This document shows, piece after piece, positions 9,150 through 30,522 of a DNA stretch of 42,024 nucleotides. Source of the stretch: an uncultured Bacilli bacterium (GTDB taxonomy: Bacteria; Bacillota_I; Bacilli_A; RF39; UBA660); the NCBI GenBank assembly GCA_947628375.1, contig CANQZQ010000002.1, positions 1 through 42,024 of the forward strand, given 5' to 3'. Every line of letters begins with the position of its first letter. Positions within the stretch are counted from its first letter, which is position 1. A program made the translations under genes and the position numbers. Under the pieces are notes generated by a model. It did not search any database and was not told the origin of the DNA. It was given only the letters and a program-made list of their open reading frames with translations.

Positions 9150-10733
9150 TTAAGACTCCTTACTTACTATTTCTTTAAGTTCTTTTTTATTAATAAAATA
9201 ATATATAATTAATAGAAAAATCCCTATGACACCAATTAAAGGTATTAATAGTAATCTACTATTTACATCTTTTATTATATCACAAGCTATTAAAGATAAA
9301 AATATCATTATAGCATAAGTTAATAATATTTTAGGTAATTTATTAGTTATAGAAGAATAATCTAAATTTATTTCTTTTTTTAAAGAAATAAATGGTATTA
9401 ATAAAGATATTATATAACCAATTAAAGTAGCTGTAATGGCTCCATAATATGGATAAATATTTAAATAATTAAATAAATACATTAAAGGTAGATCTAATAT
9501 TAAATTAATTCCTAAGCCAAGTAAAACAGAAGTATAAATTATTTTAGTTTTACCAAGTCCTTGTAAACCATTACTAATCATAATATATAGAGCATCAAAT
9601 GAGGCCACTATAATAGAATACTTAATAATTATTGGACCAAAAGAATTATTACTTCCAAAGAAGATATGCCATATTTCTTTATTAAATATACTCATAAATA
9701 TAGAAAGTGGTAAGGCTATATATAAGAAGATATTAATAGTTTTTAAAAAACTATTTTTAATGGTTTGATAATCATTTTTAGCTTTATTTTTAGAAATATT
9801 AGGTACTAAACTTAAGGCAATACCTGTGGCAATACTTGTTACTATAGTATTTATTTTAACTCCCCAAGTAGTAAAGACACTGCTAATTGCATCAATATCT
9901 TCTCCTTTTAAATGAAGATTTACTAAACCACGATTAAGTAAAATCATATCAGTAGTATTATATAAGGAATTAGCAATATTAATTATGATAAAAGGAATAG
10001 CATAGATAATCATTTTTTTAATAATAATTATTTTTTCATCCTTTTTTAAAGTATCAGTTTTTATTTTTTTATCTTTGATTTTAAATAATTTAAAGGAAAG
10101 ATAAATATATGCTGCAATAGCACCAATACATGCTCCAAAAGTAGCTATTCCAATCGCTGTTTTTAAATCAAGATTTAATATATATAAGATATAATAACTG
10201 CCACCAAGAACAACAATAATTCTTATTACTTGTTCAATAACTTGACTAAAGGCTGGAGCACTCATATAACCATGACCTTGTAAGTAGCCTCTACTTATAG
10301 ATAAAAGTGGAACAACTAAGATAGCAAATGATACCCATCTTATAACATAAGTAACATCATTAATATTAATACCTTCTAATTTATTACCTATTATTAAGGA
10401 AGCTATTTCTTTAGCAAAAATAAAACATATTAAGAAAGATATAATAGAAAATATTAAAATAATTATTTTAGTAGTTTTAAATAAATATTCTTTTTCAATT
10501 ATTTTACCTTGTTCATTATATTCACTTACTAATTTTGATATAGCAAGAGGAATACCCGCACTAGATATTATTAAAAATAAATTATAGATATTATAAGCAT
10601 AACCATATAAGGCTCCTCCAGAAGAACCAACCATATTATTAAAAGGAATAGCATAAATTATTCCTAAAAATTTACTTATAAAAATTGCAAGGACTGCAAT
10701 AATTGCACCATCTATAAATCCACTTTTTTTCAT
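9150..10733 (-). CDS. MOP-superfamily flippase (MurJ / SpoVB / YabM-like polysaccharide biosynthesis protein)
   Basis: 527 aa and polytopic. The N-terminus GAIIAVLAIFISKFLGIIYAIPFNNMVGSSGGALYGYAYNIYNLFLIISSAGIPLAISKLVSEY is typical of this family. Confidence 0.8.
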   Translation of the reverse strand: MKKSGFIDGAIIAVLAIFISKFLGIIYAIPFNNMVGSSGGALYGYAYNIYNLFLIISSAGIPLAISKLVSEYNEQGKIIEKEYLFKTTKIIILIFSIISFLICFIFAKEIASLIIGNKLEGININDVTYVIRWVSFAILVVPLLSISRGYLQGHGYMSAPAFSQVIEQVIRIIVVLGGSYYILYILNLDLKTAIGIATFGACIGAIAAYIYLSFKLFKIKDKKIKTDTLKKDEKIIIIKKMIIYAIPFIIINIANSLYNTTDMILLNRGLVNLHLKGEDIDAISSVFTTWGVKINTIVTSIATGIALSLVPNISKNKAKNDYQTIKNSFLKTINIFLYIALPLSIFMSIFNKEIWHIFFGSNNSFGPIIIKYSIIVASFDALYIMISNGLQGLGKTKIIYTSVLLGLGINLILDLPLMYLFNYLNIYPYYGAITATLIGYIISLLIPFISLKKEINLDYSSITNKLPKILLTYAIMIFLSLIACDIIKDVNSRLLLIPLIGVIGIFLLIIYYFINKKELKEIVSKES

Positions 10734-10786
10734 AAGAACACCTAAATATATTATATTTTAGTTTATTATCTATTTACAAGTATATT

Positions 10787-11017
10787 TTAATCTAATTTAC
10801 TTTTAGGATACATTTTTCTTTCATCAGTACGACATACTAAATAATCTAAACTTACATTATAAAAATCAGCTAAAATACATAATCTGTCTATTGGTATTAA
10901 TTGAATGCCTAATTCGTATTTTGAATATTGTTGTTGAGTTGTATGAAGAAGATTAGCTAATTCTTTTTGAGGGATATCTCGGTCTTCTCTAATTTCTTTT
11001 AGTCGCAATAATTTCAT
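10787..11017 (-). CDS. XRE-family HTH transcriptional regulator (76 aa), module A
   Basis: LKEIREDRDIPQKELANLLHTTQQQYSKYELG is an HTH_3 signature, and the C-terminal DYLVCRTDER tail is shared with the module B regulator. AAAGGA RBS. Divergent from 11147. Confidence 0.85.
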   Translation of the reverse strand: MKLLRLKEIREDRDIPQKELANLLHTTQQQYSKYELGIQLIPIDRLCILADFYNVSLDYLVCRTDERKMYPKSKLD

Positions 11018-11051
11018 TTTGAATCATTCCTTTAATTTATTTAATAATTTC

Positions 11052-11132
11052 ATACATCTAAAAAAATGTATTGACAATACATCTTATGAGGGGTAAAATT
11101 ATTTATATAATAATACACCTCTAAAGATGTAT
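11052..11132. promoter_or_regulatory. Operator-like ATACATCT repeats around the module A promoter
   Basis: ATACATCT occurs at 11052-11059 and 11077-11084, with its complement AGATGTAT at 11125-11132 and a variant ATACACCT at 11113-11120. ATACAT...ATGTAT (11052-11071) and ATACACCTCTAAAGATGTAT (11113-11132) are inverted repeats. Confidence 0.6.
11071..11099 (+). promoter_or_regulatory. Sigma-A-type promoter of the module A large gene
   Basis: TTGACA (11071-11076), a 17-nt spacer, then TAAAAT (11094-11099). On the other strand, TTGTCA (complement of 11072-11077), 17 nt, then TATGAA could drive the XRE gene. Confidence 0.6.
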
Positions 11133-11146
11133 AAAGGAGCATATCT

Positions 11147-12883
11147 ATGAAGAATAAAAAGAATACAATAATGTTAATAATGATAATAACAATATCTATG
11201 GTATTGTTAACCTGGAATAAGAGTTATTCATATAAAATGAATGATAATGAAGTAGAAGAAACAGAAGTAGAAAGAAAAGAATTTGGAATATATTTAGAAA
11301 AGAATCAAGGCTCAAGTAAACAAGATAATGATTATACTGAAACAAATACTTTTCCAACTCAAGGATATCTATTAAATACAACAAAAACAGAATGTTATGA
11401 ATACGGAAGTGATAATGTAATACAAAACGCAGTAGAACAAAGTTTAACAAATGGAGTAATAGATGGAACAATAATAGTAACAAGTCAAAAAAGTATGTAT
11501 TGTAAAATATATTTTGATAAAGATGATATATTACCAACAGTAACTGGATTTACAATAACAGGAAAAGATGTTAATGGAAGTGCTTTGAATAATGGTTATA
11601 CATATAATCCGGAAGTAACATATAACATAATATGGCAAGATAATGATGTAGCACAATATTGTATAAGTGAAGGAGCAAATTGTACAAATTGGCAACAAAT
11701 AGCAGGAACACAAGCAACAGGAGTAATGCCAGTATCACAAATCGATGGCGAGAAAACACTATATGTGTATTTAAAAGATAAAGCAAATAATACATCAGAA
11801 GTAAAAACAGAAAATATAATAGTAGATAGAACACCACCAGTAGTAAATACATTAACATTAACAGGAACAAAAGCGTCATGGTTTAATGTAAACCCTGGAT
11901 TCACTCACACAACAATGGTCAATTATAATGCAACTATTATAGAAGCAAATATAGAAGGATATTGTATACAAGAGGGAAGTAGTTGTAATACTTTTACACC
12001 GACATCATTATTAACTTTAAATGGGCAAGTACAAATATCTAACACAGAAACACTCCATACAGTGGTAATAAGTGTTCAAGATAAAGTCGGAAATATAGGA
12101 ATTATGACAGGAACTATTACATTAGATGCCACACCACCACAAGTAACAGTAACAGAAAAAAGTAAGACAGAGAACAGTATAACAGTTCATATAGAAGCAA
12201 CAGATACAAATGGAATACAAAGTAGGCATTGCCAATTACCAATAGAACCTTACACATGGATATTGGCAGATGCAAATGGAGATTGTACAGTAACAGGGTT
12301 ACAACCAGGGATAGCATATACGATACTTACTCATACCTATGATGGATCTGGCTTTGTCAATGAAGTAACGTCTTCATCGATATCCACAATGCAAGCTTGG
12401 ACATGTTCTAGTGGCAGTGTTCTAACACCTTCTAGTTTAGGTAGCGCGACCGGAGGATATGTTTGCGTTAAAGATGGGACAAGAGGGGACTCGTATGAAT
12501 GTGAGTGTAAATATTTAGACACGTGCAGTTCCGAGACGGTGTATCATAGTACCTACGATAAAGATTTAAGTTCGGCATTGGATGCTGAGAAGTCGTTGAC
12601 TGATAACGGGCTCGGTTCGCGAAGATGCTCTTGGTCCTCACAAAGTATGAAGGATTGTGGATCGTATTATAACTGCAGTGTCCACCGAAATGGCGATGCT
12701 GATATAATGTGCTATACAATTCAGCCTAATGGTTCGGGTTACACCTGCCGATCTGCGTACCATCCATATGAGGAAGTCTGCCGAACCTGTTATCACTATC
12801 AATGTGATGCTGACTGGCTGCAATTTTCTGGGAGTCTTGATAGTGCAAACTTAAAGTGCTATAAAGCCCCAACGAGGGGATAA
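11147..12883 (+). CDS. N-terminally anchored/secreted modular protein A: conserved head, 2 Ig-like repeats, FN3-like domain, Cys-rich C-terminal tip
   Basis: AAAGGAG RBS and hydrophobic N-terminus MKNKKNTIMLIMIITISMVLLTW. It is colinear with 25714-27909 to about aa 415. Repeats end in VDRTPP and LDATPP, each containing YCIxxGxxC. The FN3-like part contains SITVHIEATDTNGI...TVTGLQPGIAYTI. The last ~163 aa contain 14 Cys and have no counterpart in copy B. Confidence 0.8.
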   Translation: MKNKKNTIMLIMIITISMVLLTWNKSYSYKMNDNEVEETEVERKEFGIYLEKNQGSSKQDNDYTETNTFPTQGYLLNTTKTECYEYGSDNVIQNAVEQSLTNGVIDGTIIVTSQKSMYCKIYFDKDDILPTVTGFTITGKDVNGSALNNGYTYNPEVTYNIIWQDNDVAQYCISEGANCTNWQQIAGTQATGVMPVSQIDGEKTLYVYLKDKANNTSEVKTENIIVDRTPPVVNTLTLTGTKASWFNVNPGFTHTTMVNYNATIIEANIEGYCIQEGSSCNTFTPTSLLTLNGQVQISNTETLHTVVISVQDKVGNIGIMTGTITLDATPPQVTVTEKSKTENSITVHIEATDTNGIQSRHCQLPIEPYTWILADANGDCTVTGLQPGIAYTILTHTYDGSGFVNEVTSSSISTMQAWTCSSGSVLTPSSLGSATGGYVCVKDGTRGDSYECECKYLDTCSSETVYHSTYDKDLSSALDAEKSLTDNGLGSRRCSWSSQSMKDCGSYYNCSVHRNGDADIMCYTIQPNGSGYTCRSAYHPYEEVCRTCYHYQCDADWLQFSGSLDSANLKCYKAPTRG

Positions 12884-12890
12884 AGAGTTG

Positions 12891-12961
12891 ATCGAGAAGG
12901 AAAACTCGTTAAAACCTTCATAGACTTAATCCTTGGAAAGAGAGCAATCTCTTTCTTTTTT
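12891..12961 (+). repeat. Conserved 3' element of module A, including an intrinsic terminator (12936-12961)
   Basis: It differs from 27917-27986 at only 3 substitutions by my alignment. Hairpin GAAAGAGA-gcaa-TCTCTTTC plus a T-run. It begins 7 nt after the stop codon. Confidence 0.8.
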
Positions 12962-13032
12962 AATTTAACTAAAACATAAGTTTTTTTCTTGATTAATAAA
13001 TTAATCTATGATAAGCTATAGCTAGTTAGCAA

Positions 13033-13228
13033 GGAAGTTATTAAAAGAGATATTATATTATTACTAAAAGAGAGTTAATGGGTTGGTGTAAATTAATGGG
13101 TAATATAATAAATAGTATGGATAATGGAGCTAAATCAGTGAAGACTGTTATAACTAAAAGTGTATGATTAAGTTCATAAATAAAGGTGGTACCGCATTTA
13201 AAGTGTCCTTTTGTTTATGAATTTTTTT
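13033..13228 (+). promoter_or_regulatory. T-box riboswitch leader, probable Met (AUG) specifier, controlling HAD-dut-metG
   Basis: AAGGTGGTACCGC T-box core at 13183-13195. AGAGA/AGAGAG elements at 13044-13074 and a GGTGTAA distal-loop motif at 13085-13091. AUG at 13117-13119 followed by a purine in the putative specifier loop. Terminator TTCATAAAtAAAGG...CCTTTTgTTTATGAA plus T7 at 13173-13228 overlaps the T-box sequence. metG lies downstream. Confidence 0.75.
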
Positions 13229-13244
13229 ATATAATGGAGGTATC

Positions 13245-13865
13245 ATGAAAGCAATTATTTTTGATGTTGATAATACTTTAATTAAATGGAGTGATGATTA
13301 TTTATGGGCTTTAAAAAAAGTATTAAATGATATGGGATATGATAGTGAAAAATATTATAAATTAATTAATGAGGCTTTAATCATGCATAAATATAAATAC
13401 GATACTATAACTAAAGAAAATATGTTAGATATAATTAAAGAATATAGTAATTTAGATTTAAATGAAGAATTTTTAAAAAAATTTATAAATGAACAAAAAC
13501 AATTATATTATACTGATGAAGATATTACTAAAACAATAGAATATTTATATAAGAAATATGATTTATATGTTATAAGTGATTGGTTTACTGAAACTCAAGA
13601 AGGACGTTTAGAAAATATGGGAATATTAAAATATTTTAAAAAAGTATATGGAGCTGATATTAATTATTGTAAAAAAAATTTAAAGGCTTTTGATGTTATT
13701 TTAGATAAATATCCAAGTAATGAATGTGTATTTATTGGTGATAATTATGAATTAGATGTTTTAAATCCTTCATTAGTAGGTATGAATGTAATATGGGTTA
13801 CTAATAATAAAAGTACTAAATATCAAACAATTAATAATATTAAAGAATTAATGAATATATTATAA
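13245..13865 (+). CDS. HAD-superfamily hydrolase
   Basis: FDVDNTL (DxDxT) motif I, a late GDNYELD motif, 206 aa, and a GGAGG RBS. Confidence 0.75.
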   Translation: MKAIIFDVDNTLIKWSDDYLWALKKVLNDMGYDSEKYYKLINEALIMHKYKYDTITKENMLDIIKEYSNLDLNEEFLKKFINEQKQLYYTDEDITKTIEYLYKKYDLYVISDWFTETQEGRLENMGILKYFKKVYGADINYCKKNLKAFDVILDKYPSNECVFIGDNYELDVLNPSLVGMNVIWVTNNKSTKYQTINNIKELMNIL

Positions 13866-13877
13866 GGAGTAGATAAA

Positions 13878-14369
13878 ATGGATAGATATTTTGAAAAAAT
13901 AAGTTTTGAGCAATTTCAAAAAGAAATTAAAGATGATAAAGAATTATATGATGAATATATATTACCTAAAAGAAAAACTAAATATAGTGCTGGATATGAT
14001 TTTTTTGCTATTGAAGATTTTGAAATACAACCTGGAGAAAGAAAAAAAATACCTACAGGATATAGAGCTAAGTTTTTAAATGATGAAGTCTTAATGCTTT
14101 TTGTAAGAAGCAGTATGGGTTTTAAATATAATGTTAGAATGACTAATCAAGTTGGTATTATTGATGCTGATTATTTTGATAATAAAGAAACTTTTGGTCA
14201 TATGTATATTTCTTTACAAAATGAAGGAAGTAAAGTATTTAAAGTAAAAAAAGGAGAATCTTATGCTCAAGGAATATTTTTAAAATATTTAACTTGTGGT
14301 GAAGAAGTTGATAATATAAGAAATGGCTGGACTGGTAGTCCACTTAGAAAAGAGGATAATAATGAATAA
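13878..14369 (+). CDS. dut: dUTP diphosphatase (dUTPase family)
   Basis: YSAGYDFFA, VGIIDADYF and the C-terminal GWTGSP are dUTPase-type motifs; 163 aa. Confidence 0.75.
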   Translation: MDRYFEKISFEQFQKEIKDDKELYDEYILPKRKTKYSAGYDFFAIEDFEIQPGERKKIPTGYRAKFLNDEVLMLFVRSSMGFKYNVRMTNQVGIIDADYFDNKETFGHMYISLQNEGSKVFKVKKGESYAQGIFLKYLTCGEEVDNIRNGWTGSPLRKEDNNE

Positions 14370-17067: not shown

Positions 17068-17106
17068 ATGTTGAAAAACTCTGAATTTTCAACATTTTCT
17101 TTTTTT
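17068..17106 (+). terminator. Terminator hairpin, member 1 of the ATGTTGAAAA/TTTTCAACAT palindrome family
   Basis: ATGTTGAAAA (17068-17077), loop actctgaa, TTTTCAACAT (17086-17095), then a T-rich run. Confidence 0.75.
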
Positions 17107-25139: not shown

Positions 25140-25152
25140 TGAGTATTTTTTT
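25125..25152. terminator. Bidirectional terminator between gap and the module B regulator
   Basis: AAAAATACTC-tttaat-GAGTATTTTT 10-bp stem with A/T runs on both sides. Confidence 0.65.
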
Positions 25153-25600
25153 AACGTTTATAAGGAGTTCTTTCATCAGTTAAATATAATAAATAATCAA
25201 TTGGTACATTGTAATATTTAGCTAAAATAATTAGCTTTGTAATAGGAATATCGCAATAACTTGTTTCATATTGTGAATAACCATTTTGACTCATATTTAA
25301 TATTTTAGCAATATCTATTTGTAATAAATCTCTATCTTCTCTAACATCTTTTAATCTATTCATGTTATTAGCAGTTTTAATAATATGTGATGGATTATAA
25401 GGTGTTTTTATATCTGTTAAATTTAAAATATAATCGATATTGACATCAAAAATTATCGCTAATTTTCTAAGTTTAGTTGTCGAAATATTTGATAGTTCTG
25501 TCTCATATTGCGAGTATCCATTTTGACTCATATTTAATTCTTTAGCAATATCTTTTTGATATAAATTTTTTTCTTTTCTAAGTTCCTTTAGTCTATTCAT
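25151..25600 (-). CDS. XRE-family regulator with two tandem HTH domains (149 aa), module B
   Basis: Two ~70-79 aa repeats: MNRLKELRKEKNLYQKDIAKELNMSQNGYSQYET...DYILNLTD and MNRLKDVREDRDLLQIDIAKILNMSQNGYSQYET...DYLLYLTDERTPY. Divergent from 25714. Confidence 0.85.
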   Translation of the reverse strand: MNRLKELRKEKNLYQKDIAKELNMSQNGYSQYETELSNISTTKLRKLAIIFDVNIDYILNLTDIKTPYNPSHIIKTANNMNRLKDVREDRDLLQIDIAKILNMSQNGYSQYETSYCDIPITKLIILAKYYNVPIDYLLYLTDERTPYKR

Positions 25601-25622: not shown

Positions 25623-25698
25623 GTATCGTAAATAAAGATATTGACTTATATCGCTATTAACGATATACTTAATTTAATAATATCGTAAATAACGATAT
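25623..25698. promoter_or_regulatory. Three ATATCG/CGATAT-type operator-like repeats around the module B promoter
   Basis: TATCGTAAATAAaGATA (25624-25640), TATATCG-ctattaa-CGATATA (25647-25667, inside the spacer and -10), and ATATCGT-aaata-ACGATAT (25680-25698). Confidence 0.65.
25641..25669 (+). promoter_or_regulatory. Sigma-A-type promoter of the module B large gene
   Basis: TTGACT (25641-25646), a 17-nt spacer, then TATACT (25664-25669). Confidence 0.6.
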
Positions 25699-25713
25699 AA
25701 GGAGAATCTATCT

Positions 25714-27909
25714 ATGAAGAATAAAAAGAATACAATAATGTTAATAATGGTAATATCAATATCTATGGTATTGTTAACATGGAATAAGAGTTATTCATAT
25801 AAAATGGATAATAATGAGATAGAAGAAAAAGAAGTAGAAAGAAAAGAATTTGGGATATATTATCAAACTTCTGGAAATTCATATGAAGAAAAAGATACTT
25901 TCCCAACTCAAGGATATCTGTTAAATACAATAAAAACAGAATGTCATGAATATGGAAGTGATAATGTAATACAAAATGCAGTAACACAAAGTTTAATAAA
26001 TGGAGTAATAGATGGAAGTATAATAGTACAAAGTACAAAAAGTATGTATTGTAAAATATATTTTGATAAAGATGAAACACCAACAGTAAGTTCATTTAAT
26101 ATAACAGGAAAAGATAAAAATGGTGGTGTATTACAAAATGGATATACATATAATACAGGAGTATATGCAATAAGTTGGAATGATAGAGATGTAGCACAAT
26201 ATTGCTTAAGTGATAATAGTAGTACATGTACAAATTGGGTAGAAATAGGAGATAAATCAGTTAAAACAATAACAATAGAGAATAGTACATATACAAATAC
26301 AGAAGGCCCAAAAACAATATATGCATATATAAAAGATAAAGCAAATAATATATCAAATACAATAACAAATTCGACTAAACAAATAGCAGTAGATCAAACG
26401 CCACCTGTAATAAATGCATTAACATTAACGGGAACACAAGCAGCTGGAATGACATTACAAAGTGGATATACTCATACACAAACAGTAAATTATAATGCAA
26501 CTATAACAGAAACAAATATGGAAGGATATTGTATAGTAGATGGAAGTAGTTGTAGTAATTACAATACATCACCAATAACATCATTAAGTAGTACAATAGC
26601 AATAGGAACAACACAAGGAAGCCATCCAATAACATTAAGTGTAAAAGATAAAGCAGGAAATATAGGCAGTAAAACTCAATCGATAAGATTAGACACACAA
26701 AATCCAACAATAACATTGAGTAATGGAACAGCAACAGAAACAAGTATAACAGTAACAGTAAATGCAAGTGATTCTAATGGAATAGCTAGTGTAACATGTA
26801 CAGCAGTAGGAAATAATGAAGCCAAAACTGGAACATATAATAGTACTGCTAAGACATGTACATTTAGTGGTTTAAAAGATGGAACACAATATACAATAAT
26901 TGGAGTAGCAACGGACGAATCAGGAAGAAAAGGTACAAGTACACCAATAGAAGTTACTACAATTAAGCTTTTAACAGATGGTCAAAAAAAGGCTCAAGAA
27001 GTGTTAGGTGTGGTACCAAAAGGGATAAGTGAAAAGTTACTTGGAGACATGTACAGATTTGTAGGTACGAAAGATACTGTAGATAACTGGATATGTTTTG
27101 GTTATAGTAATGTAGATACGGATTGTAAATCACCATCGAGTGATTTTATGTATCGAATAATAGGGATTACTGAAGATGGACAATTAAAACTCATAAAAAA
27201 TTTAGCATATGAAAAGTATGAATGGAATTGTGAAGATTGTGGGAGAAGTCTTCATGGAGCAGCTCTATATGAACTATGGAGTAGCTCAAGTGTCCGATAT
27301 AGGGTGCAATCCGATTTTCCAACAGATCATTTAAGTAATTTATCACCAGGCAGTTCAAAACAATGGAGTGAATTAGTAGAAACAAAAGACTGGTTATATG
27401 GAGATTTTATAGCATATAATAACAATCCAATACAGAATCTTACTGCTAATCAAGTGTATGAAGCCGAGTCTGGAAAAGTAGATGTGTATATTGAAAGAAG
27501 TAGCGAATATGATCTTGTTGGTAAATGGGAGAAAACAATTACGGGTAAATTTAGCTTAATGTATGTTCATGATTTTCTATACTCATATAGCTCTGATAAT
27601 AGTCTTGATTCTTCTAATACTAGATGCACTTACGCGGGTGACTGTAAAGATAGTTGGTTATTTATTGGCAATTCTTTGCCAGAAACAGATAATAACCAAC
27701 AAAGAGATGAATGGACCATGACTTCCAGAGGTTGGGATTATGCTGGGTGGTATCAAGCAAATAGAATCGGCAGCGGGGCCATCCTTGATAGCGCCGCCAC
27801 CAATACGATTTGGTATCGGCCCGTCTTTTATATCTCCCCAACAAAGGTTAAGATAAATAAGGGCAGTGGAGTGACTTCTTCACCTTTTATAGTTGTTCCA
27901 GTAATCTAG
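25714..27909 (+). CDS. N-terminally anchored/secreted modular protein B: same head and Ig/FN3 stalk as 11147-12883, unrelated ~315-aa aromatic-rich C-terminal tip
   Basis: It differs from protein A at 6 of the first 49 residues. Repeats end in VDQTPP and LDTQNP, each with YC(L/I)...C. The FN3-like part contains SITVTVNASDSNGI...FSGLKDGTQYTI. From about aa 418 the tip carries YRFVGTKDTVDNWICFG, FMYRIIGITEDGQLKLI, EWTMTSRG and WYRPVFYI motifs. Confidence 0.8.
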   Translation: MKNKKNTIMLIMVISISMVLLTWNKSYSYKMDNNEIEEKEVERKEFGIYYQTSGNSYEEKDTFPTQGYLLNTIKTECHEYGSDNVIQNAVTQSLINGVIDGSIIVQSTKSMYCKIYFDKDETPTVSSFNITGKDKNGGVLQNGYTYNTGVYAISWNDRDVAQYCLSDNSSTCTNWVEIGDKSVKTITIENSTYTNTEGPKTIYAYIKDKANNISNTITNSTKQIAVDQTPPVINALTLTGTQAAGMTLQSGYTHTQTVNYNATITETNMEGYCIVDGSSCSNYNTSPITSLSSTIAIGTTQGSHPITLSVKDKAGNIGSKTQSIRLDTQNPTITLSNGTATETSITVTVNASDSNGIASVTCTAVGNNEAKTGTYNSTAKTCTFSGLKDGTQYTIIGVATDESGRKGTSTPIEVTTIKLLTDGQKKAQEVLGVVPKGISEKLLGDMYRFVGTKDTVDNWICFGYSNVDTDCKSPSSDFMYRIIGITEDGQLKLIKNLAYEKYEWNCEDCGRSLHGAALYELWSSSSVRYRVQSDFPTDHLSNLSPGSSKQWSELVETKDWLYGDFIAYNNNPIQNLTANQVYEAESGKVDVYIERSSEYDLVGKWEKTITGKFSLMYVHDFLYSYSSDNSLDSSNTRCTYAGDCKDSWLFIGNSLPETDNNQQRDEWTMTSRGWDYAGWYQANRIGSGAILDSAATNTIWYRPVFYISPTKVKINKGSGVTSSPFIVVPVI

Positions 27910-27916
27910 TGTTCAA

Positions 27917-27986
27917 ATCGAGAAGGAAAACTCGTAAAAACCTTCATAGACTTAATCCTTGGGAAGAGAGCAATCTCTTCCTTTTT
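27917..27986 (+). repeat. Conserved 3' element of module B, including an intrinsic terminator (27962-27986)
   Basis: Near-identical to 12891-12961. Hairpin GGAAGAGA-gcaa-TCTCTTCC plus T5. It begins 7 nt after the stop codon. Confidence 0.8.
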
Positions 27987-28014
27987 ATGTTGAAAACTAT
28001 TAAGTTTTCAACAT
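27987..28014 (+). repeat. Palindrome, member 2 of the ATGTTGAAAA/TTTTCAACAT family
   Basis: ATGTTGAAAAC-tattaa-GTTTTCAACAT, a perfect 11-bp inverted repeat. Confidence 0.7.
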
Positions 28015-29299: not shown

Positions 29300-30499
29300 A
29301 TGTTAAAAAGACAAGATTATTTAAAAAAATTATCTTCTTGGAAAGATAAAGACTTAATAAAAGTAGTAACAGGAATAAGAAGATGTGGAAAATCAACCTT
29401 ATTTTTATTATTTATAGATTATCTTAAACAAGAAGGAATAAAAGATGACCATATTATATATTTAAATTTGGAATTACCTGATTATAATTTTAATAATTAT
29501 AAAGAATTATATGATTATATAAAAAATAAAATAAAAGATAATAAAAAATACTATGTATTTTTAGATGAAGTACAAAATGTAGCAGAATTTCAAAAAGCCA
29601 TTGATGGATTATATATAAATAAAAATATAGATTTATATATAACAGGTTCTAATGCTTACCTTTTATCTGGAGAACTTGCTACTTTACTTTCAGGAAGATA
29701 TATTGAAATAAATATGTTACCACTATCTTTTAAAGAATATAAAGATTATTTTAAAGAAGATAATAATGAAAAATTATATTTACAATATATTAATAATAGT
29801 TCTTTTCCTTATGCTTTAAATTTAAATGATAGTGATCAAATTGATAGCTATTTAGATAGTATATATAATACAATAATAATTAAGGATATATTAGATAGAA
29901 ATAAGATTAGTGATGCTAGTATTTTAAAAAGCATTACCGAATTTTTATTTTCTTCAATAGGCTCTAGTTTATCAGTTAAAAAGATTGCTGATACACTTAC
30001 TTCAAATGGAAGAAAAACATCTATTCATACAGTAGAAAATTATTTAGAAAGTTTAACAAATAGTTATATTTTTAATAAAGTAAATAGATATGATATTAAA
30101 GGAAAAGAATATTTACAAACAGGTTGTAAGTACTATGCTACAGATGTAACAATGAGGTATGCTGTTTTAGGAAGAAAAAATATTGATTTAGGACATATTT
30201 TAGAAAATATAGTTTATTTAGAATTAAAAAGACGAGGCTATAAAGTATTTATAGGAAAAAGCGGAAGAGGAGAAGTAGACTTTGTAGCCCAAAATAAAGA
30301 AGGCAATATTTATATTCAAGTTGCTTATTCTGTAAGGAATGAAGAAACTTTAAAAAGAGAATTAAATGCTTTAAAATCAATAAATGATCATTATCCAAAA
30401 TTTATTTTGACTATGGATATGGATCCTGAAGTAGATTTTGACGGTATTAGAAAAATGAATGTTTTAAATTGGTTATTAAAAAATAATGTTGAAAAGTAA
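29300..30499 (+). CDS. AAA-type ATPase with C-terminal DUF4143-like (PD-(D/E)xK-like) domain
   Basis: Walker A GIRRCGKSTL, Walker B YVFLDEVQNV, C-terminal GRGEVDFVAQ...IYIQVAYS; 399 aa; GGAGGA RBS. Confidence 0.7.
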   Translation: MLKRQDYLKKLSSWKDKDLIKVVTGIRRCGKSTLFLLFIDYLKQEGIKDDHIIYLNLELPDYNFNNYKELYDYIKNKIKDNKKYYVFLDEVQNVAEFQKAIDGLYINKNIDLYITGSNAYLLSGELATLLSGRYIEINMLPLSFKEYKDYFKEDNNEKLYLQYINNSSFPYALNLNDSDQIDSYLDSIYNTIIIKDILDRNKISDASILKSITEFLFSSIGSSLSVKKIADTLTSNGRKTSIHTVENYLESLTNSYIFNKVNRYDIKGKEYLQTGCKYYATDVTMRYAVLGRKNIDLGHILENIVYLELKRRGYKVFIGKSGRGEVDFVAQNKEGNIYIQVAYSVRNEETLKRELNALKSINDHYPKFILTMDMDPEVDFDGIRKMNVLNWLLKNNVEK

Positions 30500-30522
30500 T
30501 AAGTTATCAACATTATTTTTTT
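30486..30522 (+). terminator. Terminator hairpin, member 3 of the ATGTTGA.../...TCAACAT family
   Basis: ATGTTGA (30486-30492) pairs with TCAACAT (30507-30513), followed by T7. The left arm lies inside the last codons of the ATPase gene. Confidence 0.55.

Follow-up and report, generated by a model that had tools for sequence, protein, structure and literature searches.

What keeps a sequence of about 70 nucleotides (nt) nearly unchanged behind two genes whose 3' ends are unrelated? The 42,024-nt stretch of DNA analysed here (contig CANQZQ010000002.1 of an uncultured Bacilli bacterium; hereafter the window) is a chromosome piece of a spore-forming Firmicute with ~24% GC. It carries two paralogous units, each consisting of a divergent Xre-type helix-turn-helix (HTH) gene and a secreted-protein gene. 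The secreted-protein genes, A and B, have a signal anchor and an Ig-like stalk in common (70-94% DNA identity) and end in unrelated C-terminal tips. Past their stop codons (TAA at 12881-12883 in gene A, TAG at 27907-27909 in gene B), the sequences at 12891-12960 and 27917-27986 align without gaps and are identical at 67 of 70 positions, as a preliminary description of this DNA had reported; the coding sequences upstream cannot be aligned, because the tips are of different types. We present evidence suggesting that the element is a new, family-specific bipartite RNA of the 3' untranslated region (UTR), in which a conserved stem-loop and a tract complementary to start sites are followed by a putative intrinsic terminator. 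Post-transcriptional control by pairing of this tract with the start regions of the family, in cis and possibly in trans, is the function that we tentatively propose, as a possibility and not as a settled matter.

Distribution of the element

The element was sought in 777 kb around family genes from five rabbit-gut genomes labelled 'uncultured Bacilli', every genome used being from a single host and a single data set. With one genome per species, 56 family loci were found, nearly all of them in four rabbit-gut ('Lapin') metagenome-assembled genomes; one genome has more than 20 paralogs, and only 27 relatives were present among 5.8 billion proteins. A covariance model (R1) built on the 5' part of the element recovered 48 copies at 54-77 bits, with the next-best match at 17.6 bits; its E-values are rough, and the bit-score gap is unambiguous. 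All 48 copies lie on the gene strand, directly 3' of family genes, and none occurs elsewhere in the 777 kb. BLAST and a fuzzy pattern search agreed with the model that the 5' part stands once after essentially every family gene: 48 of about 50 carry it, genes of both tip types included. The preliminary description had suggested a search for further copies and had named a generic terminator repeat as the counter-case. This was ruled out, since in the 777 kb the model matches only after family genes, and a chance origin of the copies is likewise excluded. The same description had recommended looking for copies behind promoterless tip-like open reading frames (ORFs); no silent promoterless tip cassette was seen, and the gene before each copy, full-length or frameshifted, comes with a promoter region and a regulator of its own. 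L029 and L051, two genes of the family, retain a terminator but no longer the module, and L050, a gene from a more distant genome, is without the module.

The spacing between stop codon and element had been described as exactly 7 nt. This holds for both window copies; in the 46 further copies the gap ranges from 0 to ~140 nt. At least five ORFs continue into the element, where the TAA of its module ends them. In these cases (L011:4688, L016:11971, L022:1866, L054:1405, L012:4663) the normal stop is lost, the ORF enters the first hairpin, and the protein ends in sequences such as ...IENKTEKENS or ...EKTQLEKGNS before the TAA; the second gene of L012 is also frameshifted. At L033:9136-9185 lies a degenerate module whose stem is CAAG/CTTG and which has no clear terminator; it stands ~90 nt past the gene of a distant subfamily member (L033:7402-9045), which has a type-A Cys-rich tip and a SipW-dependent-type signal peptide (TIGR04088, 15.7 bits, below cutoff).

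No family in Rfam 15 reached its gathering score (best 22 bits against a cutoff of 56 bits). A match to the PGK RNA motif at window positions 27885-28004, upstream of pgk, was judged to be noise (18.7 bits against a gathering score of 50.8, E = 5.5), and its region overlaps the family module and a separate palindrome. That palindrome, TGTTGAAAA-N8-TTTTCAACA (TT(T/A)TCAACA), occurs in the window at 17069-17094, 27988-28013 and 30487-30512, with 0 copies expected by chance, and just downstream of the family terminator at L002, L004, L006, L008, L010, L022, L023, L024, L037 and L048. It follows unrelated as well as family genes, and is a genome-wide generic repeat or bidirectional terminator distinct from the module. 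Exact-pattern scans of IMG/VR and JGI metagenomes gave 0 copies, a protein-based metagenome scan gave two weak relatives, both without the module, and two ENA contigs held known module variants only. The sequence string of the element was not found in the literature.

Structure and conservation of the element

The features of the window are listed in Table 1. From 5' to 3', the order is stop codon, gap, hairpin 1, an unpaired tract of 24-26 nt, and the predicted intrinsic terminator, giving a 3' UTR of ~75 nt.

Table 1. Positions of the element's parts, their predicted partner sites and the accompanying genes in the window
Feature	Position	Strand	Description
Hairpin 1, copy A	12893..12908	+	CGAG 12893-12896 pairs with CTCG 12905-12908; invariant loop AAGGAAAA
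Unpaired tract, copy A	12909..12934	+	TTAAAACCTTCATAGACTTAATCCTT; AAGGA-8 nt-ATG-AAGG in reverse complement ('anti-TIR', complementary to a translation initiation region, TIR)
Predicted intrinsic terminator, copy A	12935..12961	+	GGAAAGAGA-GCAA-TCTCTTTCT + T-run
Hairpin 1, copy B	27919..27934	+	CGAG-AAGGAAAA-CTCG
Unpaired anti-TIR tract, copy B	27935..27960	+	TAAAAACCTTCATAGACTTAATCCTT
Predicted intrinsic terminator, copy B	27961..27986	+	GGGAAGAGA-GCAA-TCTCTTCCT + T-run; third stem pair G-C (A-U in copy A)
TIR of gene A	11134..11152	+	AAGGAGcataTCTATGAAG (RNA AAGGAGcauaUCUAUGAAG); predicted tract partner, RNAduplex -18.2 kcal/mol
TIR of gene B	25699..25719	+	AAGGAGaatctaTCTATGAAG (RNA AAGGAGaaucuaUCUAUGAAG); predicted tract partner, -17.3 kcal/mol
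Family gene A	11147..12883	+	578 aa; signal-anchor N-terminus, Ig-like stalk, Cys-rich 'type A' tip ending ...CYKAPTRG
Family gene B	25714..27909	+	731 aa; N-terminus and stalk as gene A; 'type B' tip (...EWTM...VRPVFY...PFIVVPVI, C-terminal)
Xre-type HTH regulator, locus A	10787..11017	-	76 aa, divergent; genomic context, outside the RNA element
Xre-type double-HTH regulator, locus B	25151..25600	-	149 aa, divergent; genomic context

Comparison among up to 22 paralogs per genome showed that strong conservation belongs to the 40-nt 5' module and not to the terminator, and that the module contains a covarying 4-bp hairpin of its own, which the preliminary description had overlooked. Module identity was 1.00 within genomes (309 pairs) and 0.92 between genomes. 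For the terminator the values were 0.77 and 0.69, for the 60 nt of coding sequence (CDS) upstream 0.58 and 0.56, and for the 60 nt downstream 0.60 and 0.59, the random level being 0.57 for 60-mers and 0.54 for 32-mers. Between species the module was 85-92% identical; syntenic housekeeping DNA of the same genome pairs was 78-88% identical (91-96% in the closest pair). Between Lapin-007 and the window, four of the six module substitutions are compensatory, as are all four stem substitutions. Because the module is conserved at least as strongly as core coding sequence, and because four of six substitutions preserve pairing, we infer purifying selection on both sequence and structure, beyond homogenisation.

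The stem of hairpin 1 reads CGAG/CUCG in four genomes; Lapin-007 has UGAC/GUCA, and the degenerate copy has CAAG/CUUG. In the alignment, 100% of cells were paired and three of the four pairs showed double compensatory changes; controls slid along the sequence gave 3-50% pairing and no double changes. The tract that follows is pyrimidine-rich, with the consensus UAAAAACCU(U)CAUAGACUUAA(UC/CU)CUU and a core that can be written UAAAAACCU(U)CAUAGACUUAAUCCUU. Module variants track the genome and not the tip type, and fall into three groups, g1 (CCTTCATAGACTTAATCC), g2 (CCTCATAGACTTAACTC) and g3 (CCATCATAAACTTAATCC); in g2 and g3 the tract is predicted to be unpaired. The complementarity of CCTTC and GAAGG strings pointed out in the preliminary description did not hold up: neither this GAAGG:CCUUC pairing, seen in the minimum free energy fold, nor a pairing of the loop with UCCUU is conserved in g2 and g3. 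The tract is not a gene on the reverse strand, where it resembles a small ORF with a Shine-Dalgarno (SD) sequence, 8 nt and ATG, because a 1-nt indel right after the ATG separates the genome groups and leaves unrelated peptides. A forward-strand ORF was rejected as well, having no start codon and a 1-nt indel between genome groups.

The 3' third of the element is a predicted intrinsic terminator, with a stem of 8-14 bp, a loop of 3-6 nt and a U-run, downstream of the stop and on the gene strand; its folding energy lies between -9 and -16 kcal/mol in 47 of 47 intact copies. About a dozen sequence types of the stem occur, and all of them fold, diverging freely within one genome. Selection on RNA structure, proposed earlier from the two window copies, is supported across the family. 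Those copies differ by T/A at 12910/27936 and by one stem pair, A12937-U12954 in copy A and G27963-C27980 in copy B, within a 9-bp hairpin with GCAA loop and T-run. The covariation reported for this pair is a true compensatory change, and is one instance of the pervasive pattern among the terminators. Read on the + strand, the terminators contain 35 G-U pairs, and read on the - strand they contain 0; of 44 unique copies, 39 fold more stably on the + strand. Because both results favour the + strand, we assign the structure to the mRNA strand.

Complementarity to the start regions of the family

The reverse complement of the tract, AAGGA-UUAAGUCU-AUG-AAGG, reads as an ideal ribosome-binding site and start codon. 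Its complementarity to the TIRs of family genes extends over 14-16 bp at -14 to -18 kcal/mol, and exceeds that of 96-100% of the SD-bearing TIRs of neighbouring genes in g1 and g2. The mean duplex energy in g1 was -15.6 kcal/mol for family TIRs and -10.0 kcal/mol for neighbours, none of 59 neighbours reaching the family median; in g2 it was -13.8 against -9.4 kcal/mol, with 4% of neighbours doing as well. Shuffled tracts never equalled the observed energy in either group. Within its own mRNA, the tract was the best partner of the TIR in nine of 30 genes; in 28 of the 30 it was among the best 5% of windows.

On the reading that we tentatively favour, the element would be transcribed together with the family gene as an invariant 3' UTR, in which the 4-bp stem would display the invariant loop and the unpaired tract would pair with family mRNAs around their ribosome-binding site and start codon. 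Pairing could take place in the same mRNA after transcription is completed, and possibly on paralogous mRNAs too. The 5' hairpin and the terminator, if protective, could leave a stable fragment of ~70 nt acting in trans. A 3'-UTR-derived small RNA or an mRNA stability element, offered as alternatives in the preliminary description, is plausible. Such pairing would be expected to lower translation initiation and mRNA stability.

Several observations weigh against this reading. Conservation within the tract is lowest at the anti-SD end (AUCCUU, ACUCUU, AUCCUG), and in g1 an alternative GAAGG:CCUUC fold beats hairpin 1 by 1.2 kcal/mol; support for hairpin 1 itself comes to three independent compensatory events. 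Because family TIRs are homologous, the pairing statistics amount to one or few independent observations, with an effective p of ~0.01-0.05. In g3 the difference between family and neighbour TIRs was not significant. GC-rich windows of the tip pair with the TIR equally well or better in 21 of 30 mRNAs. A cross-group matrix revealed no co-evolution of tract and TIR, cross-group energies being as good as matched ones. As L029 and L051 are without the module, at least some family genes can dispense with it.

No perfect trans target was found elsewhere in the 777 kb, the best non-self match (-23.5 kcal/mol) not lying at a start codon. A stronger form of the proposal is that the element governs the whole family, each expressed paralog releasing or carrying one and the same anti-start-site RNA that would pair with the near-identical start regions of at least 20 paralog mRNAs, while the same sequence doubles as a recombination anchor. 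We consider this form quite improbable. If true, it would mean that total or mutually exclusive expression of the hypervariable adhesin repertoire is set post-transcriptionally, and that one 40-nt element couples expression control and diversification of surface variation.

Recombination at the family loci

The element could instead serve at the DNA level, as an anchor or signal for the exchange of tips between paralogs or strains, its RNA features being incidental or reflecting a DNA hairpin or cruciform. A role as homology arm had been raised in the preliminary description, and this idea gains direct sequence evidence. Two non-allelic loci of the same genome, L020 and L024, have in common a 285-nt tract that is 99% identical and runs from ~12 codons before the stop to the exact 3' edge of the module; past it, terminators and flanks differ. 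Further pairs of mosaic tips stand at non-orthologous loci. When orthologs of close species are compared (L002/L037, L043/L034, L004/L024), flank identity is 93-98%; it falls off along the gene until the tips cannot be aligned, and returns abruptly at the module. Genomes of g1 and of g2 contain both tip types, and the terminator type GAGAAAGTAGCAATACTTTCTC is present in both groups as well. As genome-specific modules are thus found between shared tips and shared terminators, the module has been homogenised within genomes, that is, by concerted evolution. The GC content of silent sites in the tip is raised 3-4 fold, as GC-biased gene conversion would give, and the Sma/Cla repeat of Neisseria offers a precedent (PMC4023411). 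At L020:2140-2420 and L024:12062-12345, the usual ...DPFII end is followed by a 20-residue Cys-containing extension and a spacer of ~140 nt before the module, and both are 99% identical between the two loci.

Family loci also sit on synteny breakpoints (window positions 10700-13900 compared with L007, L045 and L040; 25100-29300 compared with L031 and L035). At locus A the upstream genes are those of L007 and L045, and the downstream genes (dUTPase, metG) are those of L040, a different family locus, in Lapin-027. These breakpoints are consistent with ectopic recombination between paralogs.

As an account of what is selected, recombination alone is nevertheless unlikely. Homologous recombination needs identity, which leaves the conservation of 85-92% between species, the invariant loop and the compensatory changes unexplained, and an arm of 40 nt is short. 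Silent promoterless tip cassettes are absent among the copies, and no dedicated recombinase was identified. In the orthologs, moreover, the sharp boundary marks the end of the CDS and not the module itself, because the whole downstream flank is conserved there. An invertible element with TIR and module as inverted repeats was rejected: the similarity covers 14-16 of ~20 nt and is interrupted, and all 48 copies have the same orientation.

The RNA and recombination readings are not exclusive. Whichever function is selected, direct sequence evidence points to the module as a recombination boundary in the evolutionary process. At the DNA level it may act as the 3' anchor of gene conversion, because it is the only sequence common to all paralogs 3' of the tip; conversion would shuffle the tips and keep the module identical within a genome.

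Other explanations of the module

An RNA element could also work without start-region pairing, either as a protein-binding site or as a processing or stability module that sets half-life or localisation. The loop AAGGAAAA contains GGA, as do CsrA-type sites, and is invariant on a covarying stem; the tract is invariant in primary sequence, which is typical of recognition by a protein or ribonuclease. In the stability version, the 5' hairpin would block 5'-3' exonuclease and the terminator would block 3'-5' decay. A 5' stem-loop, a single strand and a terminator form the architecture of stable Firmicute RNAs. We doubt this explanation: no protein partner was identified, the terminator types do not conserve a second GGA, and the above-background complementarity to the TIRs would be left unexplained.

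That the module does nothing beyond what the terminator does, being a neutral 3'-UTR remnant which was duplicated along with the gene and whose identity gene conversion has maintained, is very unlikely. Two family genes do without it, its concerted evolution is evident, and the fold of the whole element is not unusually stable (z = -0.7 and -1.6). A remnant would not, however, be expected to match or exceed syntenic housekeeping coding DNA in its identity between genomes, nor to show compensation in four of four stem substitutions, while adjacent terminator stems diverge freely in the same genome.

A target signal of a diversity-generating retroelement (an initiation-of-mutagenic-homing site and hairpin past a variable region) or another retroelement can practically be set aside: the element does lie just 3' of a C-terminal hypervariable region, the downstream hairpin has a 4-nt loop and the coding strand is poorer in A in the tip than in the stalk, but the window contains neither a reverse transcriptase nor a template-repeat-like copy of either tip, the differences between tips include indels and the entire fold type and are not confined to adenine positions, and compared with housekeeping genes they have lost T and gained G+C and have not lost A.

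The protein family and its genomic context

The family products appear to be secreted and adhesin-like, each having a stalk of Ig domains and a tip that is hypervariable. Within a genome, they are ~59% identical in the N-terminus and ~40% identical in the tip. The AlphaFold model of the 731-aa protein (mean pLDDT 82.8) shows four Ig/FN3-like domains and an alpha/beta tip, and its fold matches are giant adhesins, SiiE for example, and Ig/FN3 tail proteins of phages. For the tip domain, sequence searches of Pfam, NCBIfam and the PDB and a fold search matched the Ig/FN3 stalk only.

Each family gene has a divergent Xre/HTH_3 regulator private to it (11071-11140 and 25641-25705 in the window; upstream regions of L002-L045). 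The regulator of locus B is an internal tandem duplication with two HTH_3 domains (25262-25363 and 25499-25600), and that of locus A has a single domain (10910-11011). Locus-specific inverted or direct repeats flank a sigma-70-like promoter at each family gene (ATACATCT...AGATGTAT at locus A; AACGATATA/ATATCGT at locus B), which suggests a private operator per paralog. The other genes of the window are rplI, dnaB, metG, ksgA, yabG, spoVG, yabP, clpP, gap, pgk, spo0A and iPGM.

Silent sites are skewed along the family genes. In 34 family genes together with window genes A and B, A makes up 75% of 4-fold sites in the stalk half, compared with 29% in housekeeping genes, and the last 150 codons have 35% G+C at such sites, compared with 15%, in both tip types and in all genomes. 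By gene decile, the GC content of third codon positions is 0.07-0.08 in deciles 2-5 and climbs to 0.36 in the final one. Possible causes are gene conversion with a GC bias, acting in tips that are recombination-hot, and selection favouring an mRNA body that is unstructured and poor in pyrimidines.

Comparison with known systems

The element comes close to the icaR-type 3' UTRs and to the Sma/Cla-type 3' repeat, and is not catalogued in Rfam. To our knowledge, regulatory 3' UTRs are rare in bacteria, and the known ones, such as icaR and hbs, are single-gene cases. If pairing is real, this would be the first variable surface-protein repertoire under 3'-UTR control of a whole family; if it is not, the element would still be a clean case of concerted evolution confined to a 40-nt island. 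In either case, an uncatalogued RNA motif stands 100% identical after dozens of hyper-divergent genes per genome, with a testable partner in the ribosome-binding sites of the family. Its position at the end of the variable tip, where a conversion tract stops, gives a handle on the diversification and control of surface proteins in uncultured gut Firmicutes.

In icaR of Staphylococcus aureus, a pyrimidine-rich motif of the 3' UTR pairs with the SD region of its own mRNA, blocks initiation and creates an RNase III substrate (PMC3868564). The element likewise has, in a Firmicute, a pyrimidine-rich 3'-UTR motif complementary to the SD and start region of its own mRNA. It differs in that the tract also spans the spacer and the AUG, and in the length of the 3' UTR (~75 nt here, ~390 nt in icaR). 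Because the element, unlike that of icaR, is repeated after a family of at least 20 genes, it could act in trans on paralogs. In Bacillus subtilis, a 14-bp pairing of the 5' UTR of hbs with its 3' UTR changes ribonuclease access and protects the mRNA (PMC5737220), and anti-SD-like sequences hundreds of nucleotides downstream pair with the ribosome-binding site and cut expression (PMC12697547). Long-range pairing of 3' and 5' mRNA parts in a Firmicute is what the hbs case has in common with the one proposed here; since pairing in hbs protects rather than represses, the sign of the effect here is not predictable from sequence.

Small RNAs derived from 3' UTRs in enterobacteria, such as CpxQ, SroC and DapZ, have a conserved seed before the parental terminator and form terminator-ended fragments of 60-80 nt; they are single-locus, Hfq- and RNase E-dependent and Gram-negative. 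A conserved, predicted single-stranded seed upstream of its own terminator is present in our element too, which differs from them in its dozens of identical copies and in its Firmicute host.

The Neisseria Sma/Cla repeat, ~66 bp long, stands 3' of every pilE/pilS locus and enhances gene conversion (PMC4023411). Our element resembles it as a conserved repeat immediately 3' of variable surface-protein loci, at the point where homology resumes: the same repeat follows the loci of the variable family, and in one clear case (L020/L024) a conversion tract ends in it. Neisseria, however, has silent promoterless donors, one expression locus and a G-quadruplex (G4) initiator, whereas the loci described here hold complete genes with their own regulators, and the repeat shows RNA-type covariation. 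An intrinsic terminator, finally, has no need of an invariant 40-nt module upstream; this module is the novel part of the element.

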